Source: a virus
Taxonomy: Duplodnaviria; Heunggongvirae; Uroviricota; Caudoviricetes
DNA: 15,672 nt
IMG/VR virus record: IMGVR_UViG_2582580934_000010
Strand: one strand, 5' to 3'
This document shows positions 1-14,282 of the stretch, piece by piece (within the stretch, counting starts at the first letter, position 1; every line of letters begins with the position of its first letter). The translations under genes and the position numbers were made by a program. The notes beneath the pieces were generated by a model. The model worked only from the letters and a program-made list of their open reading frames with translations. It had not been told where the DNA came from and made no database searches.

Positions 1-22
1 TTTCAAAATATTCCGCTATTTG

Positions 23-54
23 CTCCCAATGCAAAACATATATTGCATTGGGAG
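23..54 (+). terminator. Perfect 12-bp-stem hairpin (CTCCCAATGCAA / TTGCATTGGGAG, 8-nt loop) followed by a T-rich run; candidate rho-independent terminator for a gene left of the window
   Basis: Inverted repeat read directly from the sequence; T-rich tract (CATATTTTTGTT) lies about 8 nt downstream. Confidence 0.3.
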
Positions 55-183
55 CATATTCATATTTTTGTTATTATTGTATGAAATCGTCTCATGTACA
101 CGGTCCTTTTTTCGCCGAAAACTGATATTACTTTAATCAAAAGTTGACGTGCCAGATTCGAAGTAAATTTATAAAATATCAAA

Positions 184-489
184 TCAATATACATTTTGCA
201 CCTTCGAGATAGTAATAACTGTTACTGTAACATGAGTTACAAACAGCTTCATACCCAGAGCTACTGATGTATCAACTCGATTCAACAATACCCGATATTT
301 ATTCCATGCCTCCAGCAACGATCTTTCTTCCTCCGTTGCGATTTCCAGATCTACAGCATCCTGCAGTGGCGCAATATACTCACTGAATTCCTGGATGTAG
401 AACTGTGTGGTGACGGTCTTCCAGCCATTCGGCTCCTGTTGTATCGAAGCATACCAGGCTATTTCAATATCGCTATGCTGCGGCAGCAT
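184..489 (-). pseudogene. tfaX: Tail fibre assembly protein remnant (tfaX-like); only the central ~40 aa match the Tfa C-terminal domain
   Basis: Residues [38 protein letters not shown] match the lambda Tfa C-terminal region and the paralogue at 1269..1691; the flanking N- and C-terminal residues are unrelated. ATG start at 487-489. Confidence 0.6.
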
Positions 490-545
490 TTAACCCCTTG
501 TAATTCATCGCCATAATTGATTTAATTCACAAATAAAACTATAAC

Positions 546-1214
546 ATGGTGAAATTAATGAAAAAAAACACAGATGATGGGGCTAAAATTTACACACCAC
601 TTACCCTAAAGCTTTATGACTGGTGGGTTTTGGGAGTATCAAATCGGCTTGCATGGGGATGTCCTACAAAGGAACACCTTCTTCCACACTTTCTGGAACA
701 TTTAGGTAACAACCATCTGGATATTGGTGTTGGAACTGGGTTTTACCTTACTCACGTACCTGAGAGTAGTCTGATATCTTTAATGGATTTGAACGAAGCT
801 AGCCTGAACGCGGCATCTACAAGGGCTGGGGAATCAAAAATTAAACATAAAATTAGCCATGATGTTTTTGAACCTTATCCCGCGGCGTTACATGGTCAAT
901 TTGATTCCATTTCCATGTTTTACCTTCTTCACTGCCTGCCTGGAAATATATCTACAAAAAGCTGTGTAATACGCAATGCGGCGCAGGCCTTAACTGACGA
1001 TGGAACTCTATACGGAGCCACAATTCTTGGCGATGGAGTTGTGCACAATAGCTTCGGTCAAAAACTGATGCGCATTTACAATCAGAAAGGCATCTTTTCA
1101 AACACAAAAGATTCCGAAGAAGGCTTAACACATATACTCTCAGAGCATTTCGAGAATGTTAAAACCAAGGTTCAAGGTACTGTAGTAATGTTTTCCGCTT
1201 CAGGGAAAAAATAG
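546..1214 (+). CDS. ybcY: Class I SAM-dependent methyltransferase (YbcY-like moron between the tfa remnants)
   Basis: 222-aa ORF with ATG start and a glycine-rich SAM-binding motif I (LDIGVGTGFY). Position between tfaD and tfaX matches the K-12 DLP12 arrangement as I recall it. No DNA-methyltransferase DPPY/NPPY motif seen. Confidence 0.7.
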   Translation: MVKLMKKNTDDGAKIYTPLTLKLYDWWVLGVSNRLAWGCPTKEHLLPHFLEHLGNNHLDIGVGTGFYLTHVPESSLISLMDLNEASLNAASTRAGESKIKHKISHDVFEPYPAALHGQFDSISMFYLLHCLPGNISTKSCVIRNAAQALTDDGTLYGATILGDGVVHNSFGQKLMRIYNQKGIFSNTKDSEEGLTHILSEHFENVKTKVQGTVVMFSASGKK

Positions 1215-1268
1215 CATCCAACCGCAGCACGTTCTTGCTTAAGACGTGCTGCGGCATAATCCCAATGA

Positions 1269-1691
1269 TTACTCCCTGACAGGGTTCGTAGGCCACTCAA
1301 TATCAGGTGCAGTTGATGTATCAACACGGTTCAGCAACACCCGATACTTTTTCCAGGCTTCCAGCAACAAGGTTTCTTCCTCCGTTGCGATCTCCAGATC
1401 CACAGCATCCTGAAGCGGCGCTATATGCTCACTGGCTACCTGCATCAGGCTGTTTTTTGTTTCTTCCGCCTCACGGATCCGGAACAGTTTTTCTGCTTCC
1501 GTATCCTTCACCCAAGCTGTGCCGTTCCACTTCTGAAACTCCCCTTCCGGGGATAACCAGGTGACATTTTCCGGTAATGAGCCGAGTTCAGAAATAAATA
1601 ACGCGTCGCCGGAAGCCACGTCATAAACCGTTTTACCCCGATGATCTTCAACGAGATGCCACGATGCCTCATCACTGTTGAAAACAGCCAC
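1269..1691 (-). pseudogene. tfaD: Tail fibre assembly protein Tfa, 5'-truncated (tfaD-like); the only in-frame start is a GTG that corresponds to an internal Val of lambda Tfa
   Basis: The 140 aa align with lambda Tfa from ...[18 protein letters not shown] to the C-terminus. Manual translation upstream continues in frame as [37 protein letters not shown] (Tfa-like) and then hits a stop at 1884-1886 without any ATG. Confidence 0.8.
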
Positions 1692-1896
1692 AAAGCCAGC
1701 AGGAATATCTGGTGGTGCAATATCGGTACTGTTTGCTGGCAGACCTGTATGAGGCGGAATATATGCATCACCTTCACCAATAAATTCATTAGTTCCGGCC
1801 AGGCACCAATATTTTTCGTAAAGGTGTCTTTGCCAGGGATATCCGCACCGTTCTGATCTTTCTGCAGACGTTTCTCGGCATTGTCATAGGCTGTTT

Positions 1897-4355
<2,459 letters not shown>

Positions 4356-6551: not shown

Positions 6552-6841
6552 ATCATAACGTCCGGTTTCTTCCGTGTCAGCACCGGGGCGTTGGCATAAT
6601 GCAATACGTGTACGCGCTAAACCCTGTGTGCATCGTTTTTAATTATTCCCGGACACTCCCGCAGAGAAGTTCCCCGTCAGGGCTGTGGACATAGTTAATC
6701 CGGGAATACAATGACGATTCATCGCACCTGACATACATTAATAAATATTAACAATATGAAATTTCAACTCATTGTTTAGGGTTTGTTTAATTTTCTACAC
6801 ATACGATTCTGCGAACTTCAAAAAGCATCGGGAATAACACC

Positions 6842-7135
6842 ATGAAAAAAATGCTACTCGCTACTGCGCTGGCCCTGCTTATTACAGGATGTGCTCAACA
6901 GACGTTTACTGTTCAAAACAAACAGACAGCAGTAGCACCAAAGGAAACCATCACCCATCATTTCTTCGTTTCTGGAATTGGGCAGAAGAAAACTGTCGAT
7001 GCAGCCAAAATTTGTGGCGGCGCAGAAAATGTTGTTAAAACAGAAACCCAGCAAACATTCGTAAATGGATTGCTCGGTTTTATTACTTTAGGCATTTATA
7101 CTCCGCTGGAAGCGCGTGTGTATTGCTCAAAATAA
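6842..7135 (+). CDS. borD: Bor lipoprotein (serum-resistance outer-membrane lipoprotein), 97 aa
   Basis: MKKMLLATALALLITGCAQQ... carries a lipobox (LITGC) and is near-identical to lambda Bor as recalled; on the opposite strand to the lysis genes, as in lambda. Confidence 0.9.
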   Translation: MKKMLLATALALLITGCAQQTFTVQNKQTAVAPKETITHHFFVSGIGQKKTVDAAKICGGAENVVKTETQQTFVNGLLGFITLGIYTPLEARVYCSK

Positions 7136-7166
7136 TTGCATGAGTTGCCCATCGATATGGTCAGCT

Positions 7167-7628
7167 CTATCTGCACTGCTCATTAATATACTTCTGGGTT
7201 CCTTCCAGTTGTTTTTGCATAGTGATCAGCCTCTCTCTGAGGGTGAAATAATCCCGTTCAGCGGTGTCTGCCAGTCGGGGGGAGGCTGCATTATCCACGC
7301 CGGAGGCCGTGGTGGCTTCACGCACTGACTGACAGACTGCTTTGATGTGCAACCGACGACGACCAGCGGCAACATCATCACGCAGAGCATCATTTTCAGC
7401 TTTCGCATCAGCTAACTCCTTCGTGTATTTTGCATCGAGCGCAGCAACATCACGCTGACGCATCTGCATGTCAGTAATTGCCGCGTTCGCTAGCTTCAGT
7501 TCTCTGGCATTTTTGTCGCGCTGGGCTTTGTAGGCGATTGCGTTATCACGGTAATGATTGACCGCCCATGACAGGCTGACGATGATGCAGATAATCAGAG
7601 CGGATATAATCGCGGTTACTCTGCTCAC
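7167..7628 (-). CDS. rzpD: Spanin inner-membrane subunit Rz (i-spanin)
   Basis: Matches lambda Rz ([10 protein letters not shown]...KYINEQCR). The likely start is the GTG at 7626-7628, which corresponds to the Met of lambda Rz and overlaps the R stop; the track's upstream GTG at 7640 is the alternative. Confidence 0.8.
7226..7408 (-). CDS. rzoD: Spanin outer-membrane lipoprotein Rz1 (o-spanin), embedded in the +1 frame of Rz
   Basis: 60 aa [24 protein letters not shown]... with a lipobox (VVGC) and a proline-rich C-terminus; the embedded architecture is as in lambda Rz/Rz1. Confidence 0.8.
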
Positions 7629-8925: not shown

Positions 8926-10023
8926 ATGAAAAAATTAACAGTGGCAATTTCTGCTGTAGCTGCATCAGTACTGATGGCGATGTCTGCTCAGGCAGCTGAA
9001 ATTTATAATAAAGACAGTAACAAGCTGGATCTGTACGGGAAAGTTAATGCCAAGCACTACTTTTCCTCTAACGATGCAGATGATGGTGATACTACTTATG
9101 TTCGTCTGGGCTTCAAAGGCGAAACCCAAATCAACGATCAGCTGACTGGTTTCGGTCAGTGGGAATATGAATTCAAAGGCAACCGCGCTGAATCTCAAGG
9201 TTCCTCCAAAGACAAAACCCGTCTTGCATTTGCAGGCCTGAAATTCGGTGACTACGGCTCAATCGATTACGGCCGTAACTACGGTGTAGCATACGACATC
9301 GGTGCGTGGACTGACGTTCTGCCAGAATTCGGTGGCGATACCTGGACCCAAACAGATGTGTTCATGACTGGTCGCACCACTGGTGTTGCAACCTATCGTA
9401 ACAACGACTTCTTTGGTCTGGTTGATGGTCTGAACTTTGCTGCTCAGTACCAAGGCAAAAACGATCGTAGCGATTTCGATAACTACACCGAAGGTAACGG
9501 TGATGGCTTCGGTTTCTCTGCTACCTATGAATACGAAGGATTCGGTATCGGTGCAACTTATGCGAAATCTGATCGTACCGACACTCAAGTTAATGCAGGG
9601 AAAGTTCTTCCTGAAGTATTTGCTTCCGGTAAAAATGCAGAAGTTTGGGCCGCAGGTCTGAAATATGACGCTAACAACATTTACCTGGCCACTACCTATT
9701 CTGAAACCCAGAATATGACTGTATTTGCTGATCACTTCGTTGCTAATAAAGCTCAAAACTTCGAAGCTGTTGCACAATATCAGTTCGATTTCGGTCTGCG
9801 TCCGTCCGTTGCTTACCTGCAATCTAAAGGTAAGGATCTTGGAGTATGGGGCGATCAGGACTTAGTCAAATATGTTGATGTAGGTGCAACCTATTACTTC
9901 AACAAAAATATGTCTACTTTCGTTGATTACAAAATCAACCTGCTTGACAAAAATGACTTCACTAAAGCACTCGGTGTAAGCACTGATGACATCGTTGCTG
10001 TAGGTCTGGTTTACCAGTTCTAA
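8926..10023 (+). CDS. nmpC: Outer-membrane general porin, NmpC/OmpD/OmpC family (intact, 365 aa with signal peptide)
   Basis: Signal peptide [23 protein letters not shown] followed by AEIYNKD; typical porin motifs and the C-terminal aromatic residue (...VGLVYQF); lies between Q and the lysis cassette on the opposite strand. Confidence 0.9.
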
Positions 10024-11707: not shown

Positions 11708-12070
11708 ATGGCTAGCGAACGCAGTACTGATGTGCAGGCATTTATCGGGGAGCTGGACGGCGGCGTATTTGAAACCAAAATCGGCGCAGTTCTCAGTGAG
11801 GTCGCTTCCGGTGTGATGAACACGAAAACCAAAGGGAAGGTCTCACTCAATCTGGAAATCGAACCGTTTGATGAGAACCGTGTGAAAATCAAACACAAAC
11901 TCTCATATGTTCGCCCAACTAACCGCGGGAAAATTTCCGAAGAAGACACCACCGAAACGCCGATGTATGTCAATCGCGGTGGTCGCCTGACTATTCTGCA
12001 GGAAGACCAGGGACAATTACTGACTCTTGCCGGTGAACCTGACGGAAAACTCCGCGCAGCAGGTCGTTAA
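11708..12070 (+). CDS. yfdP: Hypothetical protein, YfdP-like (120 aa); first gene of the int-proximal plus-strand operon
   Basis: The track ORF starts at 11543; I chose the ATG at 11708, preceded by GAGGAG with 7-nt spacing, which gives 120 aa MASERSTDVQAFIGELDGG.... Length and neighbours match the K-12 CPS-53 yfdP-Q-R-S-T series as recalled. Confidence 0.55.
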   Translation: MASERSTDVQAFIGELDGGVFETKIGAVLSEVASGVMNTKTKGKVSLNLEIEPFDENRVKIKHKLSYVRPTNRGKISEEDTTETPMYVNRGGRLTILQEDQGQLLTLAGEPDGKLRAAGR

Positions 12071-12135
12071 TATCGTTCGTAATAAACTGATTATTTATCT
12101 CATCACTGAATATCTTTATATAGTGAGGACTTATT

Positions 12136-12960
12136 ATGTCTCAGAACTTAGACGCAACCGCAATTAATCAAATCCATGCCCTTATTTCTGCTCAGGGTGT
12201 TAATGAAATTATCAGTAAGATTGGTGCCGATGCTGTGGCATTGCCTGAGAATTTCCGCATTCATGATCTGGAAAAATTTAATTTAAATCGCTTCCGTTTC
12301 CGTGGTGCGCTTTCCACTGCCAGCATCGATGACTTTACCCGTTATTCTAAAGATCTTGCAGATGAAGGCACCCGCTGCTTTATCGATGCTGATAATATGC
12401 GTGCCGTCAGTGTGCTTAACCTGGGTACTATTGATGAGCCAGGTCACGCAGATAACACTGCCACTCTCAAACTGAAAAAGACAGCACCGTTCTCTGCTCT
12501 GTTGTCTGTTAACGGCGAGCGTAACTCCCAGAAGTCACTGGCAGAATGGATCGAAGACTGGGCCGACTACCTTGTGGGCTTTGATGCTAATGGTGACGCC
12601 ATTCAAGCAACAAAAGCGGCTGCGGCAGTCCGTAAAATCACGATTGAAGCAAACCAGACCGCTGATTTTGAAGATAATGACTTCAGCGGCAAACGCTCCC
12701 TGATGGAGTCTGTCGAAGCGAAGACCAAAGACATTATGCCAGTGGCATTTGAATTTAAATGCGTTCCGTTTGAAGGTCTGAAAGAACGTCCGTTTAAATT
12801 ACGCCTCAGCATTATCACTGGCGATCGTCCTGTACTGGTTCTGCGCATTATTCAGCTGGAAGCGGTGCAGGAAGAAATGGCTAACGAATTTCGTGATCTG
12901 CTTGTTGAGAAATTCAAAGACAGCAAAGTAGAAACCTTTATTGGTACTTTCACCGCCTGA
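12136..12960 (+). CDS. yfdQ: Hypothetical protein, YfdQ-like (DUF2303), 274 aa
   Basis: ATG start with a GAGGA Shine-Dalgarno; length and context match YfdQ as recalled. Confidence 0.6.
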
Positions 12961-12972
12961 TTTCATTACTGC

Positions 12973-12999
12973 AAATGCCCCTGCGGGGGCATTTATGGA
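12973..12999 (+). terminator. Hairpin AAATGCCCC-TGCG-GGGGCATTT followed by ATTTAT; possible attenuator or terminator after the yfdQ-like gene
   Basis: GC-rich 9-bp stem 13 nt after the stop codon; the U-tract is short. Confidence 0.3.
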
Positions 13000-13087
13000 A
13001 ACGTAATTAACTCAATAATCACCGGATGGTGAGGGCTTCCTTTTACCAGAATTCAGCGCGGTGCAGTGCATATACGTGGAGAACAAA

Positions 13088-13624
13088 ATGTCATTTATTA
13101 AAACTTTTTCCGGGAAGCATTTTTATTATGACAAGATAAATAAAGACGACATCGATATTAACGATATCGCGGTTTCCCTTTCAAATATCTGTCGCTTTGC
13201 CGGTCATCTTTCGCACTTCTACAGCGTCGCCCAACATGCGGTTCTTTGCAGCCAGCTGGTGCCGCAGGAATTTGCTTTTGAAGCGTTAATGCATGATGCA
13301 ACAGAAGCGTATTGCCAGGACATTCCCGCACCACTGAAACGCCTTCTTCCTGACTATAAACGGATGGAAGAAAAAATAGACGCCGTAATCCGTGAGAAAT
13401 ACGGGTTACCCCCAGTTATGAGTACACCCGTGAAATATGCCGATCTCATCATGCTGGCAACCGAACGCCGCGATCTCGGGCTTGATGATGGCTCTTTCTG
13501 GCCTGTACTGGAAGGCATCCCGGCAACAGAGATGTTCAACGTGATTCCACTGGCACCGGGTCATGCCTACGGGATGTTTATGGAACGTTTTAACGATTTA
13601 TCGGAGTTACGCAAATGCGCATGA
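13088..13624 (+). CDS. yfdR: HD-domain phosphohydrolase, YfdR-like (5'-deoxynucleotidase family), 178 aa
   Basis: The internal ATG at 13088 has a GGAG Shine-Dalgarno and gives 178 aa. His...HD metal-binding signature (FAGHLSHF...LMHDATEAY). Confidence 0.65.
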   Translation: MSFIKTFSGKHFYYDKINKDDIDINDIAVSLSNICRFAGHLSHFYSVAQHAVLCSQLVPQEFAFEALMHDATEAYCQDIPAPLKRLLPDYKRMEEKIDAVIREKYGLPPVMSTPVKYADLIMLATERRDLGLDDGSFWPVLEGIPATEMFNVIPLAPGHAYGMFMERFNDLSELRKCA

Positions 13625-13977
13625 ATGTTTTCGAAATGGAAGGGTTTCTTCGCGGGAAATGTGTACCGCGAGATCTGAAAGTGAACGAAACAAATGCTGA
13701 GTACCTGTTACGTAAATTCGACGCGCTTGAAGCTAAATGTGCGGCACTGGAAAACAAAATAATACCAGTGTCAGCTGAACTGCCACCAGCAAATGAAAGT
13801 GTTCTGTTATTTGATGCTAATGGAGAAGGCTGGCTGATTGGCTGGCGTTCTCTCTGGTACACCTGGGGACAAAAAGAAACCGGAGAATGGCAGTGGACAT
13901 TTCAGGTCGGGGACCTTGAAAACGTCAATATCACTCACTGGGCAGTAATGCCAAAAGCACCGGAGGCTGGAGCATAA
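13615..13977 (+). CDS. yfdS: Hypothetical protein, YfdS-like (DUF551-type), 120 aa
   Basis: Overlaps the yfdR stop; Trp-rich C-terminus (GEGWLIGWRSLWYTWGQKETGEWQW); length matches YfdS. Confidence 0.55.
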   Translation: MRMNVFEMEGFLRGKCVPRDLKVNETNAEYLLRKFDALEAKCAALENKIIPVSAELPPANESVLLFDANGEGWLIGWRSLWYTWGQKETGEWQWTFQVGDLENVNITHWAVMPKAPEAGA

Positions 13978-14282
13978 TGACCACATTTACCAATAAAGAA
14001 CTGATTAAAGAAATCAAAGAACGAATCAGCAGCCTAGAGGTTCGAGACGATATTGAGCGCCGTGCTTATGAAATCGCACTCGTATCTCTGGAAGTAGAGC
14101 CAGATGAACGCGAAGCCTATGAATTATTCATGGAAAAGCGTTTCGGTGACTTAGTAGATCGTCGGAGAGTAAAAAACGGCGATAACGAATACATGGCATG
14201 GGATATGACTCTCGGTTGGATCGTCTGGCAGCAACGAGCTGGTATCCATTTTTCAACAATGACACAGCAAGAGGTGAAATAA
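13977..14282 (+). CDS. yfdT: Hypothetical protein, YfdT-like, 101 aa
   Basis: TAATG overlap with the yfdS stop; length and position match YfdT. Confidence 0.55.
   Translation: MTTFTNKELIKEIKERISSLEVRDDIERRAYEIALVSLEVEPDEREAYELFMEKRFGDLVDRRRVKNGDNEYMAWDMTLGWIVWQQRAGIHFSTMTQQEVK

Follow-up and report, generated by a model that had tools for sequence, protein, structure and literature searches.

The window, as we call the whole 15,672-nt stretch of phage DNA analysed here, holds a methyltransferase gene that is flanked on either side by oppositely oriented coding sequence of tail fibre assembly (tfa) genes. This arrangement raises the question of how the two tfa sequences came to frame the gene, and of whether they move it. 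A preliminary description of this DNA had proposed that a cargo gene was inserted into a duplicated tfa gene, and that the repeats could drive excision or gene conversion of the resulting cassette. The features involved are as follows.

184..489, minus strand: chimeric tfaX-type ORF of 101 aa, apparently a relic (ORF list; Caudo_TAP at residues 31-77)
184..264, minus strand: read-through tail of this ORF, substituting for the natural Tfa tail and terminator kept by other alleles
265..396, minus strand: repeat copy A, coding box of a Tfa C-terminal domain (repeat search, 132 nt)
397..489, minus strand: foreign start of the same ORF (first 31 codons), which together with the next ~5 codons stems from a small, unrelated phage gene, namely its 5′ end (79-aa family, phrog_3893)
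517..545, plus strand: putative sigma-70-like promoter (TTGATT-17-TATAAC) for the methyltransferase, in the AT-rich divergent spacer 490-545
546..1214, plus strand: intact ybcY-type gene for a class I SAM-dependent methyltransferase (Pfam, PHROG, AlphaFold2)
1222..1254, no strand assigned: strong hairpin in the gap where the methyltransferase and tfaD genes converge (RNA fold)
1269..1802, minus strand: tfaD, lambda-type tail fibre assembly gene (Caudo_TAP, PF02413, positions 1-130 of 131, E 2e-45; PGAP)
1314..1445, minus strand: repeat copy B, C-terminal-domain box of tfaD (repeat search, 132 nt)
1802..2256, minus strand: deletion scars, a 146-nt internal side-tail-fibre fragment and the first ~105 codons of a lambda-type portal gene (PGAP partial features)

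Identity of the prophage

The whole window was 100% identical to the argU-adjacent prophage (intD, nohD, bor) of strain 13TMH22, and its sequence identifies it as a DLP12-type defective lambdoid prophage of E. coli, integrated at argU. The region of interest is the tail-fibre-distal end of this prophage, with the genes called tfaD, ybcY and tfaX in K-12, a locus that is already known, annotated as the DLP12 end and common to most E. coli genomes. The prophage can be called defective because a side-tail-fibre fragment is fused to the start of the portal gene at 1802..2256. The portal remnant matched only positions 2-75 of the Phage_portal_2 profile (Pfam), relatives carry ~1.4 kb extra at this scar, and no side-tail-fibre gene was left in the prophage.

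DLP12 of K-12, which adjoins appY/ompT, has the same locus and gene order as the window (argU tRNA, intD, nohD, bor, rrrD), with 99.1% nucleotide identity over the methyltransferase segment and the same divergent spacer. However, ybcY is frameshifted in K-12 and intact in the window, and K-12 tfaX has an internal stop whereas the tfaX-type ORF of the window is open. The outer third of K-12 copy A, unlike that of the window, derives from a different tfa allele. On the left, K-12 carries appY versus an alpha/beta-hydrolase remnant in the window's lineage, and the window retains a full terminase gene and gpW, both of which are gone from K-12 DLP12.

The repeat and its tfa context

The direct repeat around the oppositely oriented methyltransferase gene, as the preliminary description had reported it, proved to be real. 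The repeat search returned two direct copies of 132 nt each at a spacing of 1049 and 84% identity, and alignment of copies A and B in register gave 111 matches over 132 positions (84.1%; local blastn E-value 1e-36), compared with 33 +/- 5 matches (maximum 58) among 200,000 random in-register 132-nt pairs drawn from the window. Homology ended abruptly at both edges. The initial estimate of ~80% identity between 262-375 and 1314-1427 was borne out as to identity, with 95 of 111 positions (86%) matching between 265-375 and 1314-1424, but the first copy had been started 3 nt too early, so that only 42 of 114 positions match in the literal register (262 against 1314).

Both copies lie in frame on the minus strand and match positions 75-121 of the Caudo_TAP profile, and their codons differ by 12 synonymous and 7 non-synonymous changes. 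Since the repeat ends 14 codons short of the tfaD stop codon, it represents a C-terminal-domain box rather than the extreme C-terminus. The tfaD gene itself covers the Caudo_TAP profile at full length, yet it lacks 17 codons at its 5′ end as well as a canonical start codon: homology in its translation starts at LAGTNEF, position 1802 is a CTG codon, and complete forms of 194 aa are found in O121 and PhiR26_1.

Between copies A and B of other loci, identity amounted to 84-88%, while copy A was 84.8-86.4% identical over all 132 nt to the tfa genes of phages lambda, HK630 and 2H10, and copy B shared 94.7-95.5% identity with its counterparts in other strains. Copy A is thus as near to lambda tfa as it is to copy B, which argues for ordinary paralogue divergence rather than duplication in situ. 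An identity no higher than that of diverged paralogues (84% versus 84.8-86.4%) is indeed what the preliminary description had named, next to an absence of cassette turnover across strains, as counting against its own reading. The repeat represents the conserved box for the C-terminal (oligomerisation) domain, present here in two distinct Tfa paralogues. In PMC9608196, which cites North et al. 2019, the C-terminal domain of Tfa is described as conserved and the N-terminal domain as variable and fibre-binding. By comparison with the modular Tfa chaperones (TfaMu of Mu, Tfa of lambda), the 44 repeated codons correspond to the conserved C-terminal helical domain, and the non-repeated part of tfaD to the variable fibre-binding N-terminal domain.

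The ORF carrying copy A

The ORF that contains copy A (hereafter copy-A ORF) is a chimera, in which a tfa 3′ end follows ~36 codons taken from a small phage gene that is unrelated to tfa. Unlike the Tfa chaperones it contains no fibre-binding domain, a foreign N-terminus of 36 residues standing in its place; it is not a full Tfa, as it covers only positions 75-121 of Caudo_TAP and its N-terminus belongs to another small-protein family. PGAP listed it as a pseudogene, derived from a partial tail fiber assembly gene (“incomplete; missing N-terminus”), and it matched phrog_2341 over residues 1-87 (E 5e-56) and phrog_3893 over residues 3-37. By tblastn its N-terminus shared 51-54% identity with an ORF of 79 aa in Klebsiella phage Kp4882-3, and in phage Ayreon, where the small gene is kept unfused beside a scar left by deletion of the methyltransferase, homology runs past the fusion point to residue 50. 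Matches of the N-terminus to “DinI” regions (tblastn, E 0.1-0.2) were dismissed as chance or as neighbouring annotation.

Other alleles of this ORF are 89 aa long and end in the natural Tfa tail, and at loci with such an allele A matches B over 227-233 nt at 79-89%, including stop codon, 3′ UTR and hairpin; many genomes part from the window exactly at 265. The ORF is disrupted by an internal stop in K-12, by a 7-nt deletion in 2G7b and PhiR49_1 and by an IS66 truncation in O157, and it is deleted in E2348/69, where the methyltransferase is kept. Nevertheless, it may not be a mere relic, because two diverged 89-aa alleles (84% amino acid identity to each other) both have open frames.

Comparing the window with a P2-like prophage, we obtained a dS of 0.50 for the copy-A box versus 0.02 for the adjoining methyltransferase gene. 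The box had a dN/dS of 0.13, and the N-terminal part a dN/dS of 0.4-0.6 on just 7-8 changes, which is indistinguishable from neutrality. The outer third of K-12 copy A was B-like. The gene conversion suggested at the outset therefore stands in a weaker form only, namely that the box trades sequence with other tfa genes (dS 0.50 versus 0.02; mosaic K-12 copy A).

The methyltransferase and its moron features

The annotated start of ybcY at 546 yields a protein of 222 aa, although the ATG at 558 (218 aa) is the likelier start because the phrog_2132 alignment begins at residue 5 and homologues are 218 aa long. Four Pfam profiles scored above their gathering cut-offs (in brackets): Methyltransf_12 with 37.6 (30), Methyltransf_23 with 28.8 (27), Methyltransf_25 with 27.7 (27) and Methyltransf_11 with 24.6 (21.2). 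Motif I (LDIGVGTG, residues 58-65) and the acidic residue ending strand 2, which together mark SAM binding, were both present, and D55, G57, G59, G61 and D77 were invariant in 32 homologues. The AlphaFold2 model (mean pLDDT 91.7) showed a Rossmann-like alpha/beta fold with a seven-stranded sheet. NCBIfam gave only far sub-threshold matches (CpaM, RquA; best 17 bits versus a cut-off of 175-180) and no named family.

The fold-level comparison that had been proposed as a check favoured a small-molecule or lipid class, in that the structural matches were small-molecule and lipid methyltransferases, generic class I hits at 12-21% identity. Comparators included PmtA (PDB 8ys9), Plasmodium phosphoethanolamine methyltransferase, DhpI, UbiG/Coq5 and juvenile hormone acid methyltransferase, the last being the best sequence-profile match in the PDB; at 12-21% identity, their substrates are not transferable to YbcY. 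The DNA-methylase motif IV ((D/N/S)PP(Y/F/W) or PCQ), which such enzymes combine with a target-recognition domain, was not found in YbcY, and a DNA methylase or restriction-modification system was rejected in view of its motifs and size, its fold neighbours and its context. As a defence component, YbcY returned only a PADLOC mad2 match (E 0.0033, 14 bits), which does not qualify it as one. We thus regard YbcY, from its sequence and its model, as a probable small-molecule or lipid O-, N- or C-methyltransferase rather than a DNA methylase, and its most likely target in the lysogen would be a metabolite or a component of the envelope. Its gene neighbours in the prophage are tfa remnants, and its Salmonella and Enterobacter homologues (56-70% identity) are stand-alone chromosomal genes.

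Morons such as lom and bor of lambda, in the concept of Hendrix and Juhala, are additional genes that lie between conserved phage genes and bring along a promoter and a terminator. The results support ybcY as such a moron-type cargo gene between two direct tfa-derived sequences, in agreement with the preliminary description. It lies between genes that are adjacent in relatives, many of which lack it, and its GC content is 0.408, versus 0.494 for tfaD and 0.541 for gpW and terminase. Like lom and bor, it is an extra gene of lower G+C and opposite orientation between the tail-fibre genes and att, missing in lambda and most relatives and kept in heavily decayed prophages. Unlike them, it has no evident terminator of its own, as the 1222..1254 hairpin belongs to the tfa flank. 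This hairpin, with folding energies of –23.9 kcal/mol as plus-strand RNA and –28.6 kcal/mol as minus-strand RNA, is followed by a T-run on the minus strand and by none on the plus strand, which is that of the methyltransferase. In PhiR49_2, where dinI replaces the methyltransferase, homology starts at 1215, right after the methyltransferase stop codon, and segment 1215-1388 is retained at 98.9%. The hairpin is part of the 3′ flank of tfa and likely terminates the tail operon.

The divergent spacer 490-545 has a GC content of 0.27. A generic promoter and terminator scan, whose counts were no higher than in shuffled sequence and which we did not count as evidence, did not pick the 517-545 site. 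In K-12, the same hexamers in the spacer between ybcY and tfaX have been reported by genomic SELEX to form a constitutive RpoD promoter, along with an H-NS site, and a divergent promoter on the tfaX side is listed as well (PMC3946193). Read from the sequence, the –10 element of the latter overlaps the ATG of the copy-A ORF. The methyltransferase gene, which converges on tfa, would probably use its own sigma-70 promoter, making expression from a repressed prophage possible.

Distribution and variation of the slot

The methyltransferase was detected in 3,838 of the 5,426 complete E. coli genomes (3,797 at a coverage of at least 80%) and in at least 14, by one count 17, of the 50,697 phage records. 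Both lambdoid and P2-like prophages carry it. The left and right junctions were found in 3,431 and 3,016 of these genomes, respectively. About 70% of complete E. coli genomes have an intact ybcY, which is kept even in prophage stubs such as that of E2348/69; being widespread and retained in this way, it would reasonably merit functional work. The pair of methyltransferase and copy A also occurs behind tail-fibre modules without a full Tfa in phage 2G7b, and in P2-like prophages that sit at smpB.

The proposed survey of homologous prophages revealed that the slot differs among relatives, which may have dinI there, a catalase cluster or an invertase, or else an internal deletion, but that this variation did not come about by way of the repeats. 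In O157 the methyltransferase is accompanied by a stress/catalase cluster, and in phage Turner by 1.7 kb bearing an invertase, which occurs at the slot in Turner only. In phage Ayreon the methyltransferase was lost when position 519 became joined to 1179, an internal deletion in which the repeats were not involved, and in PhiR49_2 a B-type tfa 3′ end abuts dinI. Breakpoints gather at the box, at 265 in many genomes, at ~310-320 in K-12 and at 1385-1388 in 2G7b, PhiR49_2 and E2348/69. A remnant of an invertible segment (Gin/Cin/Pin) was considered and rejected, since the repeats are direct, not inverted, and the window contains no invertase.

Origin of the arrangement

In the explanation we prefer, to which we assign a probability of roughly 80%, a DLP12-type locus carries two paralogous Tfa boxes and a moron methyltransferase, with the box as a linker. 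Copy B belongs to a lambda-type tfa gene, 5′-truncated in the window. The copy-A ORF would have arisen by illegitimate recombination between ~36 codons of a small phage gene and a second tfa 3′ end. The methyltransferase would be an orphan enterobacterial chromosomal gene of low G+C, captured just past the terminator hairpin of the tail operon. The tfa box would then act as a “linker”, a stretch of shared homology where prophages of the lambdoid and P2-like types swap flanking modules, and such exchange would leave mosaic breakpoints at the edges of the box. As a discovery this carries little weight, the locus being annotated in DLP12 and the box being common to all lambdoid and P2-like tfa genes, but it provides a clean worked example of a conserved Tfa box serving as a recombination linker and leaving chimeric scars.

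The alternative that one tfa 3′ end was duplicated in situ, with the methyltransferase cassette inserted between long target duplications, might explain why the copies are direct and in register, and why fuller alleles repeat box, tail, stop codon and terminator hairpin over the 227-233 nt mentioned above (79-89%). It could also draw on a single-copy, “empty” order of tfa, hairpin and dinI, seen in PhiR49_2 and in up to 522 genomes (a count that may take in junctions of copy A and dinI at methyltransferase-bearing loci), with the B-side homology of PhiR49_2 beginning exactly at the methyltransferase stop codon. The long repeat of the fuller alleles and this single-copy order leave some room for an old duplication with later divergence or conversion. 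We consider the duplication model unlikely, because copy A stands as far from copy B as from the tfa genes of unrelated lambdoid phages, box and methyltransferase differ in dS at the same two loci (about 0.5 versus 0.02), and the DNA directly upstream of copy A belongs to another gene family whose unfused state is kept in Ayreon. Neither a transposase or recombinase, nor an inverted repeat, nor a short target-site duplication was found in the element, so that it does not qualify as an excisable cassette. The initial view of cargo inserted into a duplicated tfa gene likewise finds no support in the similar identities of copy A to B (84-88%) and to lambda-type tfa (84.8-86.4%), in the ~36 foreign codons of the chimeric ORF in which copy A lies, or in the occurrence of the methyltransferase-copy A pair in 2G7b, without a full Tfa, and in P2-like prophages. 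That the repeats are active, turning the cassette over between strains by recA-dependent excision or gene conversion, seems highly improbable, even though cargo in or beside the copies varies (methyltransferase alone, with the O157 catalase cluster or with the Turner invertase), A-box alleles are mosaic, and copy A has a perfect match of 40 nt in common B alleles. When we joined window positions 1-330 to 1380-1800 as an A × B recombinant query (threshold of at least 80% of the query), no such recombinant with the window's left flank was found in the 5,426 genomes, the best matches being single tfa genes, while both junctions are kept in at least 3,000 genomes. Moreover, the longest perfect identity between the window's copies, within DNA that is 84% identical, is 19 nt, which falls below the minimal processing segment of ~23-27 bp for RecA-dependent recombination. 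The relatives that lack the methyltransferase arose otherwise, Ayreon by its deletion without repeats; PhiR49_2 was rejected as a recent excision product because its repeat is B-type (100% to a B copy) as far as the cargo boundary and because only 87% identity to the A-side flank was seen in its dinI flank. The excision anticipated in the preliminary description is thus not borne out: the window's copy pair does not behave as an excision device and represents ordinary phage mosaicism, not a mobile cassette.

A different kind of alternative holds that the copy-A ORF is a functional 89-aa “mini-Tfa”, with a short N-terminus followed by the conserved oligomerisation domain, forming a two-gene module with the methyltransferase, for instance as a generic helper or as a dominant-negative decoy against the tail-fibre assembly of competing phages. 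It has a PHROG family of its own (phrog_2341, E 5e-56), the methyltransferase accompanies it in 3,431 genomes, in lambdoid as well as in P2-like prophages, two alleles that differ by 16% in protein keep the 89-aa frame and the natural Tfa tail, the box has a dN/dS of 0.13, and a divergent promoter has been reported in K-12 (PMC3946193). However, the ORF is disrupted in K-12, 2G7b, PhiR49_1 and O157, its natural tail is replaced by read-through in the window, and E2348/69 deleted it while keeping the methyltransferase. The N-terminal dN/dS (0.4-0.6 on 7-8 changes) is not separable from neutrality, the low value of the box can come from functional tfa donors, and the –10 of the reported tfaX promoter overlaps the ATG of the ORF, which together make a functional mini-Tfa quite improbable. 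Still more doubtful is a selected lysogenic-conversion module, in which a mini-Tfa decoy would poison the tail fibres of competitors and the methyltransferase would modify an amine or carboxyl group of the envelope. An envelope target (e.g. a phosphoethanolamine-type head group) is hinted at by the PmtA and phosphoethanolamine-methyltransferase fold matches and by an ArnT-family neighbour in Salmonella.

Overlap of the tfa box with an Rfam family

Among the Rfam matches, those to CssrB and mir-450 were both sub-threshold and were set aside. The full model of RF02111 (“IS009”) matched the copy B region at 1312-1510 with 221.6 bits (gathering threshold 117), and copy A reached 107.4 bits, under this threshold. 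The match to copy B consists of the box plus 65 nt upstream and runs in sense orientation along the tfa coding sequence, and nothing in this analysis shows an independent RNA at that place. In published work, IS009 has been left out as lying within genes (PMC5331693). Rfam IS009 is simply the tfa coding box, which should serve as a warning for sRNA annotation.

The direct repeat and its coding content

A repeat search with in-register counting resolved, in the window, a direct repeat of 132 nt whose two copies were identical at 111 of 132 positions (84%), with a spacing of 1049 nt and a sharp loss of homology at both edges.

Features of the repeat locus in the window
184–489, minus strand: ORF holding copy A, 101 aa, with a Tfa match (Caudo_TAP) limited to residues 31–77
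265–396, minus strand: copy A of the repeat
546–1214, plus strand: methyltransferase ORF, intact
1222–1254: hairpin
1314–1445, minus strand: copy B of the repeat, inside tfaD
1802–2256: two deletion scars, the portal gene being cut at ~105 codons and running into a 146-nt internal piece of the side-tail-fibre gene, which runs in turn into tfa at codon 18

The preliminary description had placed the repeat at 262–375 and 1314–1427, which was nearly right, but its pairing of 262 with 1314 yielded only 42/114 matches, while the true register (265 with 1314) yielded 95/111 across the same span. Because 200,000 random in-register pairs of 132 nt drawn from the window averaged 33 ± 5 matches and never exceeded 58, the repeat lies far beyond chance. 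Both copies are read in frame and encode a motif of 34 residues that corresponds to positions 75–121 of the Pfam Caudo_TAP profile. A passage of PMC9608196, citing North et al. 2019, describes Tfa chaperones as having a variable, fibre-binding N-terminal domain and a highly conserved helical C-terminal domain, and the repeat is this conserved C-terminal box.

Copy A was 84.8–86.4% identical over all 132 nt to the tfa genes of phages lambda, lambda imm434, HK630, 2B8 and 2H10, and 84.1% identical to copy B (84–88% in seven other loci), with the two copies in the window differing at 12 synonymous and 7 non-synonymous codons. Their divergence is thus that of ordinary paralogues, and their identity is no higher than diverged paralogues would show.

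The same coding sequence attracted matches to the Rfam family RF02111 ('IS009', a candidate sRNA), for copy B at 221.6 bits (1312–1510, minus strand), exceeding the gathering score of 117, and for copy A at 107.4 bits (263–466, minus strand), both on the sense strand of tfa. Others have set IS009 aside as lying within genes (PMC5331693). The family appears to have been built on tfa C-terminal coding sequence, and its matches in prophages are therefore probably annotation artefacts.

A defective DLP12-type prophage

The first 2.5 kb of the window matched 12 complete E. coli chromosomes at 100% identity. In one of these, strain 13TMH22, the region belongs to a prophage that is inserted at the argU tRNA gene and carries intD, quuD, essD/rrrD/rzpD, bor, nohD, a full large-terminase gene and gpW, as well as fragments of the portal and side-tail-fibre genes and a gene for tail fibre assembly; after these come the methyltransferase and a partial pseudogene for tail fibre assembly. 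The window prophage is of the DLP12 type. In DLP12 of K-12 MG1655, the same three features (tfa, methyltransferase and outer tfa) adjoin appY and ompT, with ybcY frameshifted and tfaX interrupted by an internal stop, whereas the methyltransferase of the window is intact. The locus is the annotated tfaD–ybcY–tfaX region of DLP12, and the finding is real, ordinary and already known.

The window prophage is defective. Its lambda-type portal gene is truncated, the fibre fragment is an internal piece, and the first 17 codons of the lambda-type protein are missing from tfaD, with a CTG at the PGAP start position; among the copy-A ORF, the methyltransferase and tfaD, only the methyltransferase is intact. 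No head or tail gene is left between portal and tfa, while terminase, gpW and nohD remain intact. The prophage also carries an intact porin gene at the nmpC position (8926–10023) and early genes of the yfdP/yfdQ/yfdR/yfdT type (11708–14282), named in K-12 from prophage CPS-53, both being further evidence of mosaicism. In the AT-rich left flank (GC 0.31), a terminator-like hairpin with a 14-bp stem and a T-rich tail (21–56, plus strand) is probably the terminator of a truncated alpha/beta-hydrolase gene ending just left of the window.

A chimeric ORF around copy A

The first ~36 residues of the copy-A ORF matched another family, phrog_3893, and Klebsiella phage Kp4882-3 encodes a 79-aa protein whose start shares 51–54% identity (tblastn) with these residues. 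Beside the locus, phage Ayreon has the same small gene, interrupted by a stop codon, and there the homology to the 79-aa protein runs past the fusion point to residue 50. It follows that the ORF fuses the 5′ end of a small gene of unrelated origin to the 3′ end of a tfa.

Other alleles of this ORF encode 89 aa (mini-Tfa) and end in a natural Tfa tail of 14 residues; in the loci carrying them, the A side matches the B side over 227–233 nt, including the stop codon, the 3′UTR and the terminator hairpin. In the window, this tail has been swapped for an unrelated flank from about position 265 leftwards, resulting in the 101-aa read-through form. The ORF is disrupted by the internal stop in K-12 and by a 7-nt deletion in 2G7b and PhiR49_1, truncated by an IS66-family (ISEc8) insertion in O157, and deleted in E2348/69.

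The repeats as exchange points rather than excision sites

The segments of the locus were counted in 5,426 complete E. coli genomes, together with the A × B recombinant, a synthetic query joining window 1–330 to 1380–1800 as the predicted product of repeat-mediated deletion.

Occurrence of locus segments in complete E. coli genomes
Methyltransferase segment, any match: 3,838/5,426 (up to 4 copies, all at least 95% identical)
Methyltransferase segment, at least 80% coverage: 3,797/5,426
Left junction (copy A and methyltransferase 5′ end): 3,431/5,426
Right junction (methyltransferase 3′ end and a tfa box): 3,016/5,426
tfa 3′ end–hairpin–dinI junction: 522/5,426
A × B recombinant with the window's left flank: 0/5,426

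A survey of related prophages revealed that both the occupants of the locus and its flanks vary. Specifically, 2G7b has a different fibre and chaperone module before the methyltransferase and a B side reduced to a 75-nt tfa scar; phage Turner has about 1.7 kb with a DNA invertase gene (6813–7403) between tfa and methyltransferase (locus L005, 5757–7513); and O157:H7 strain 7636 has a four-gene cluster (a general stress protein, two ferritin-like proteins and a manganese catalase) between methyltransferase and tfa (locus L014, 4613–6826). In E2348/69 the methyltransferase directly abuts ompT and copy A is missing, in Ayreon an internal deletion that fuses window 519 to 1179 has taken out the methyltransferase, and in PhiR49_2 a dinI-like gene occupies the slot, with homology to the window resuming right behind the methyltransferase stop codon, at 1215. 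None of these variants was a product of recombination between copies A and B. PhiR49_2 is ruled out as a recent excision product, since its single tfa box matches a B copy at 100% identity as far as the cargo boundary and its dinI flank shares only 87% identity with the A-side flank of loci that carry the methyltransferase.

Efficient RecA-dependent exchange needs ~23–27 bp, more than the longest perfect match between the copies in the window (19 nt), and their 16% mismatch would lower exchange further. Along with the missing recombinant, these data speak against the proposal that the repeats drive excision of the cassette. The proposed gene conversion holds only loosely, insofar as the box swaps sequence with a wider tfa pool; there is no sign of conversion between the two local copies, or of their moving the cargo.

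Where one flank gives way to another, the breakpoint tends to fall within the tfa box or at its edge: position 265 is precisely where many genomes part from the window, the outer third of the K-12 copy A switches to B-like sequence, and 2G7b (L003), PhiR49_2 (L007) and EPEC E2348/69 (L015) lose homology at 1385–1388, inside copy B. The latter break would either go back to a single inherited event or mark a favoured crossover site in the 19-nt core, the most conserved part. Moreover, between the window and a P2-like prophage locus (L020), synonymous divergence rose from 0.02 for the methyltransferase to 0.19 for the N-terminal part of the copy-A ORF and 0.50 for the box, so the box was exchanged for that of another tfa gene while the neighbouring cargo stayed nearly identical.

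Spread and proposed history of the locus

The methyltransferase was present at a coverage of at least 99% in 14 sequenced lambdoid phage records, including 2G7b, ev243, PhiR26_1, Turner and Kati. The tfa–methyltransferase–mini-Tfa triplet, followed by dinI, also forms the end of a P2-like myovirus prophage (baseplate J, gpI and fibre gene) adjoining smpB (L019/L020, 3637–5636), indicating that the block crossed between phage types.

Most likely, the locus arose in three steps. A lambdoid phage would have carried stf, tfa and the hairpin, followed by a convergent methyltransferase and a divergent small gene, an arrangement of which Ayreon may be a decayed witness. One illegitimate exchange would then have linked the small gene, at codon ~36, with the box of a second tfa, which brought its own tail, hairpin and downstream flank, thereby creating both the direct repeat and the chimeric ORF. 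Finally, homologous exchange at tfa boxes would have carried the block into many prophages of the lambdoid type and some of the P2-like type, with repeated swaps of its outer flanks on the way. That an ancient in-situ duplication produced the two boxes would be a less likely alternative, one that nothing in these data favours.

The methyltransferase

The ORF passed four Pfam class I methyltransferase cut-offs. Its start is likely the ATG at 558 (MKKNT..., 218 aa), since the PHROG profile and the homologues begin there and E2348/69 is annotated with 218 aa. The AT-rich spacer upstream (GC 0.27) holds TTGATT-17-TATAAC at 517–545, hexamers listed for the K-12 ybcY/tfaX spacer as a constitutive sigma-70 promoter with an H-NS site (PMC3946193); a generic promoter scan did not single out this site. 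The hairpin at 1222–1254 (–24 to –29 kcal/mol) belongs to the tfa flank, as it is kept where the methyltransferase is absent. A 45-aa ORF overlapping the methyltransferase 3′ end and this hairpin (1159–1296, minus strand), named 'hypothetical protein' in RefSeq and 'nucleocapsid protein' in K-12 records, looks like a spurious gene call.

The GC content of the methyltransferase (0.41, versus 0.49–0.54 in neighbouring phage genes) and the single chromosomal homologues without phage neighbours in Salmonella and Enterobacter point to capture of a host gene; homologues of 56–70% identity are widespread in Enterobacterales. An alignment of 32 homologues retained 58 invariant columns, consistent with an active enzyme. 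Fold matches comprised phosphatidylethanolamine and phosphoethanolamine N-methyltransferases, juvenile hormone acid methyltransferase (also the best PDB sequence-profile match, E 4e-5), DhpI, natural-product O- and C-methyltransferases, Coq5 and UbiG. The top fold matches contained no DNA methylase, DNA-methylase motif IV was not present in the sequence, and PADLOC and NCBIfam returned nothing significant. On balance, the enzyme would be a methyltransferase of small molecules or lipids at work in the lysogen, a cargo that fits the moron concept. In Salmonella enterica, the chromosomal homologue (56% identity) follows immediately downstream of a 516-aa PMT_2/ArnT-family membrane glycosyltransferase in the same orientation (L009, 3987–6663), a weak hint of an envelope-related role, although the Enterobacter context differs.
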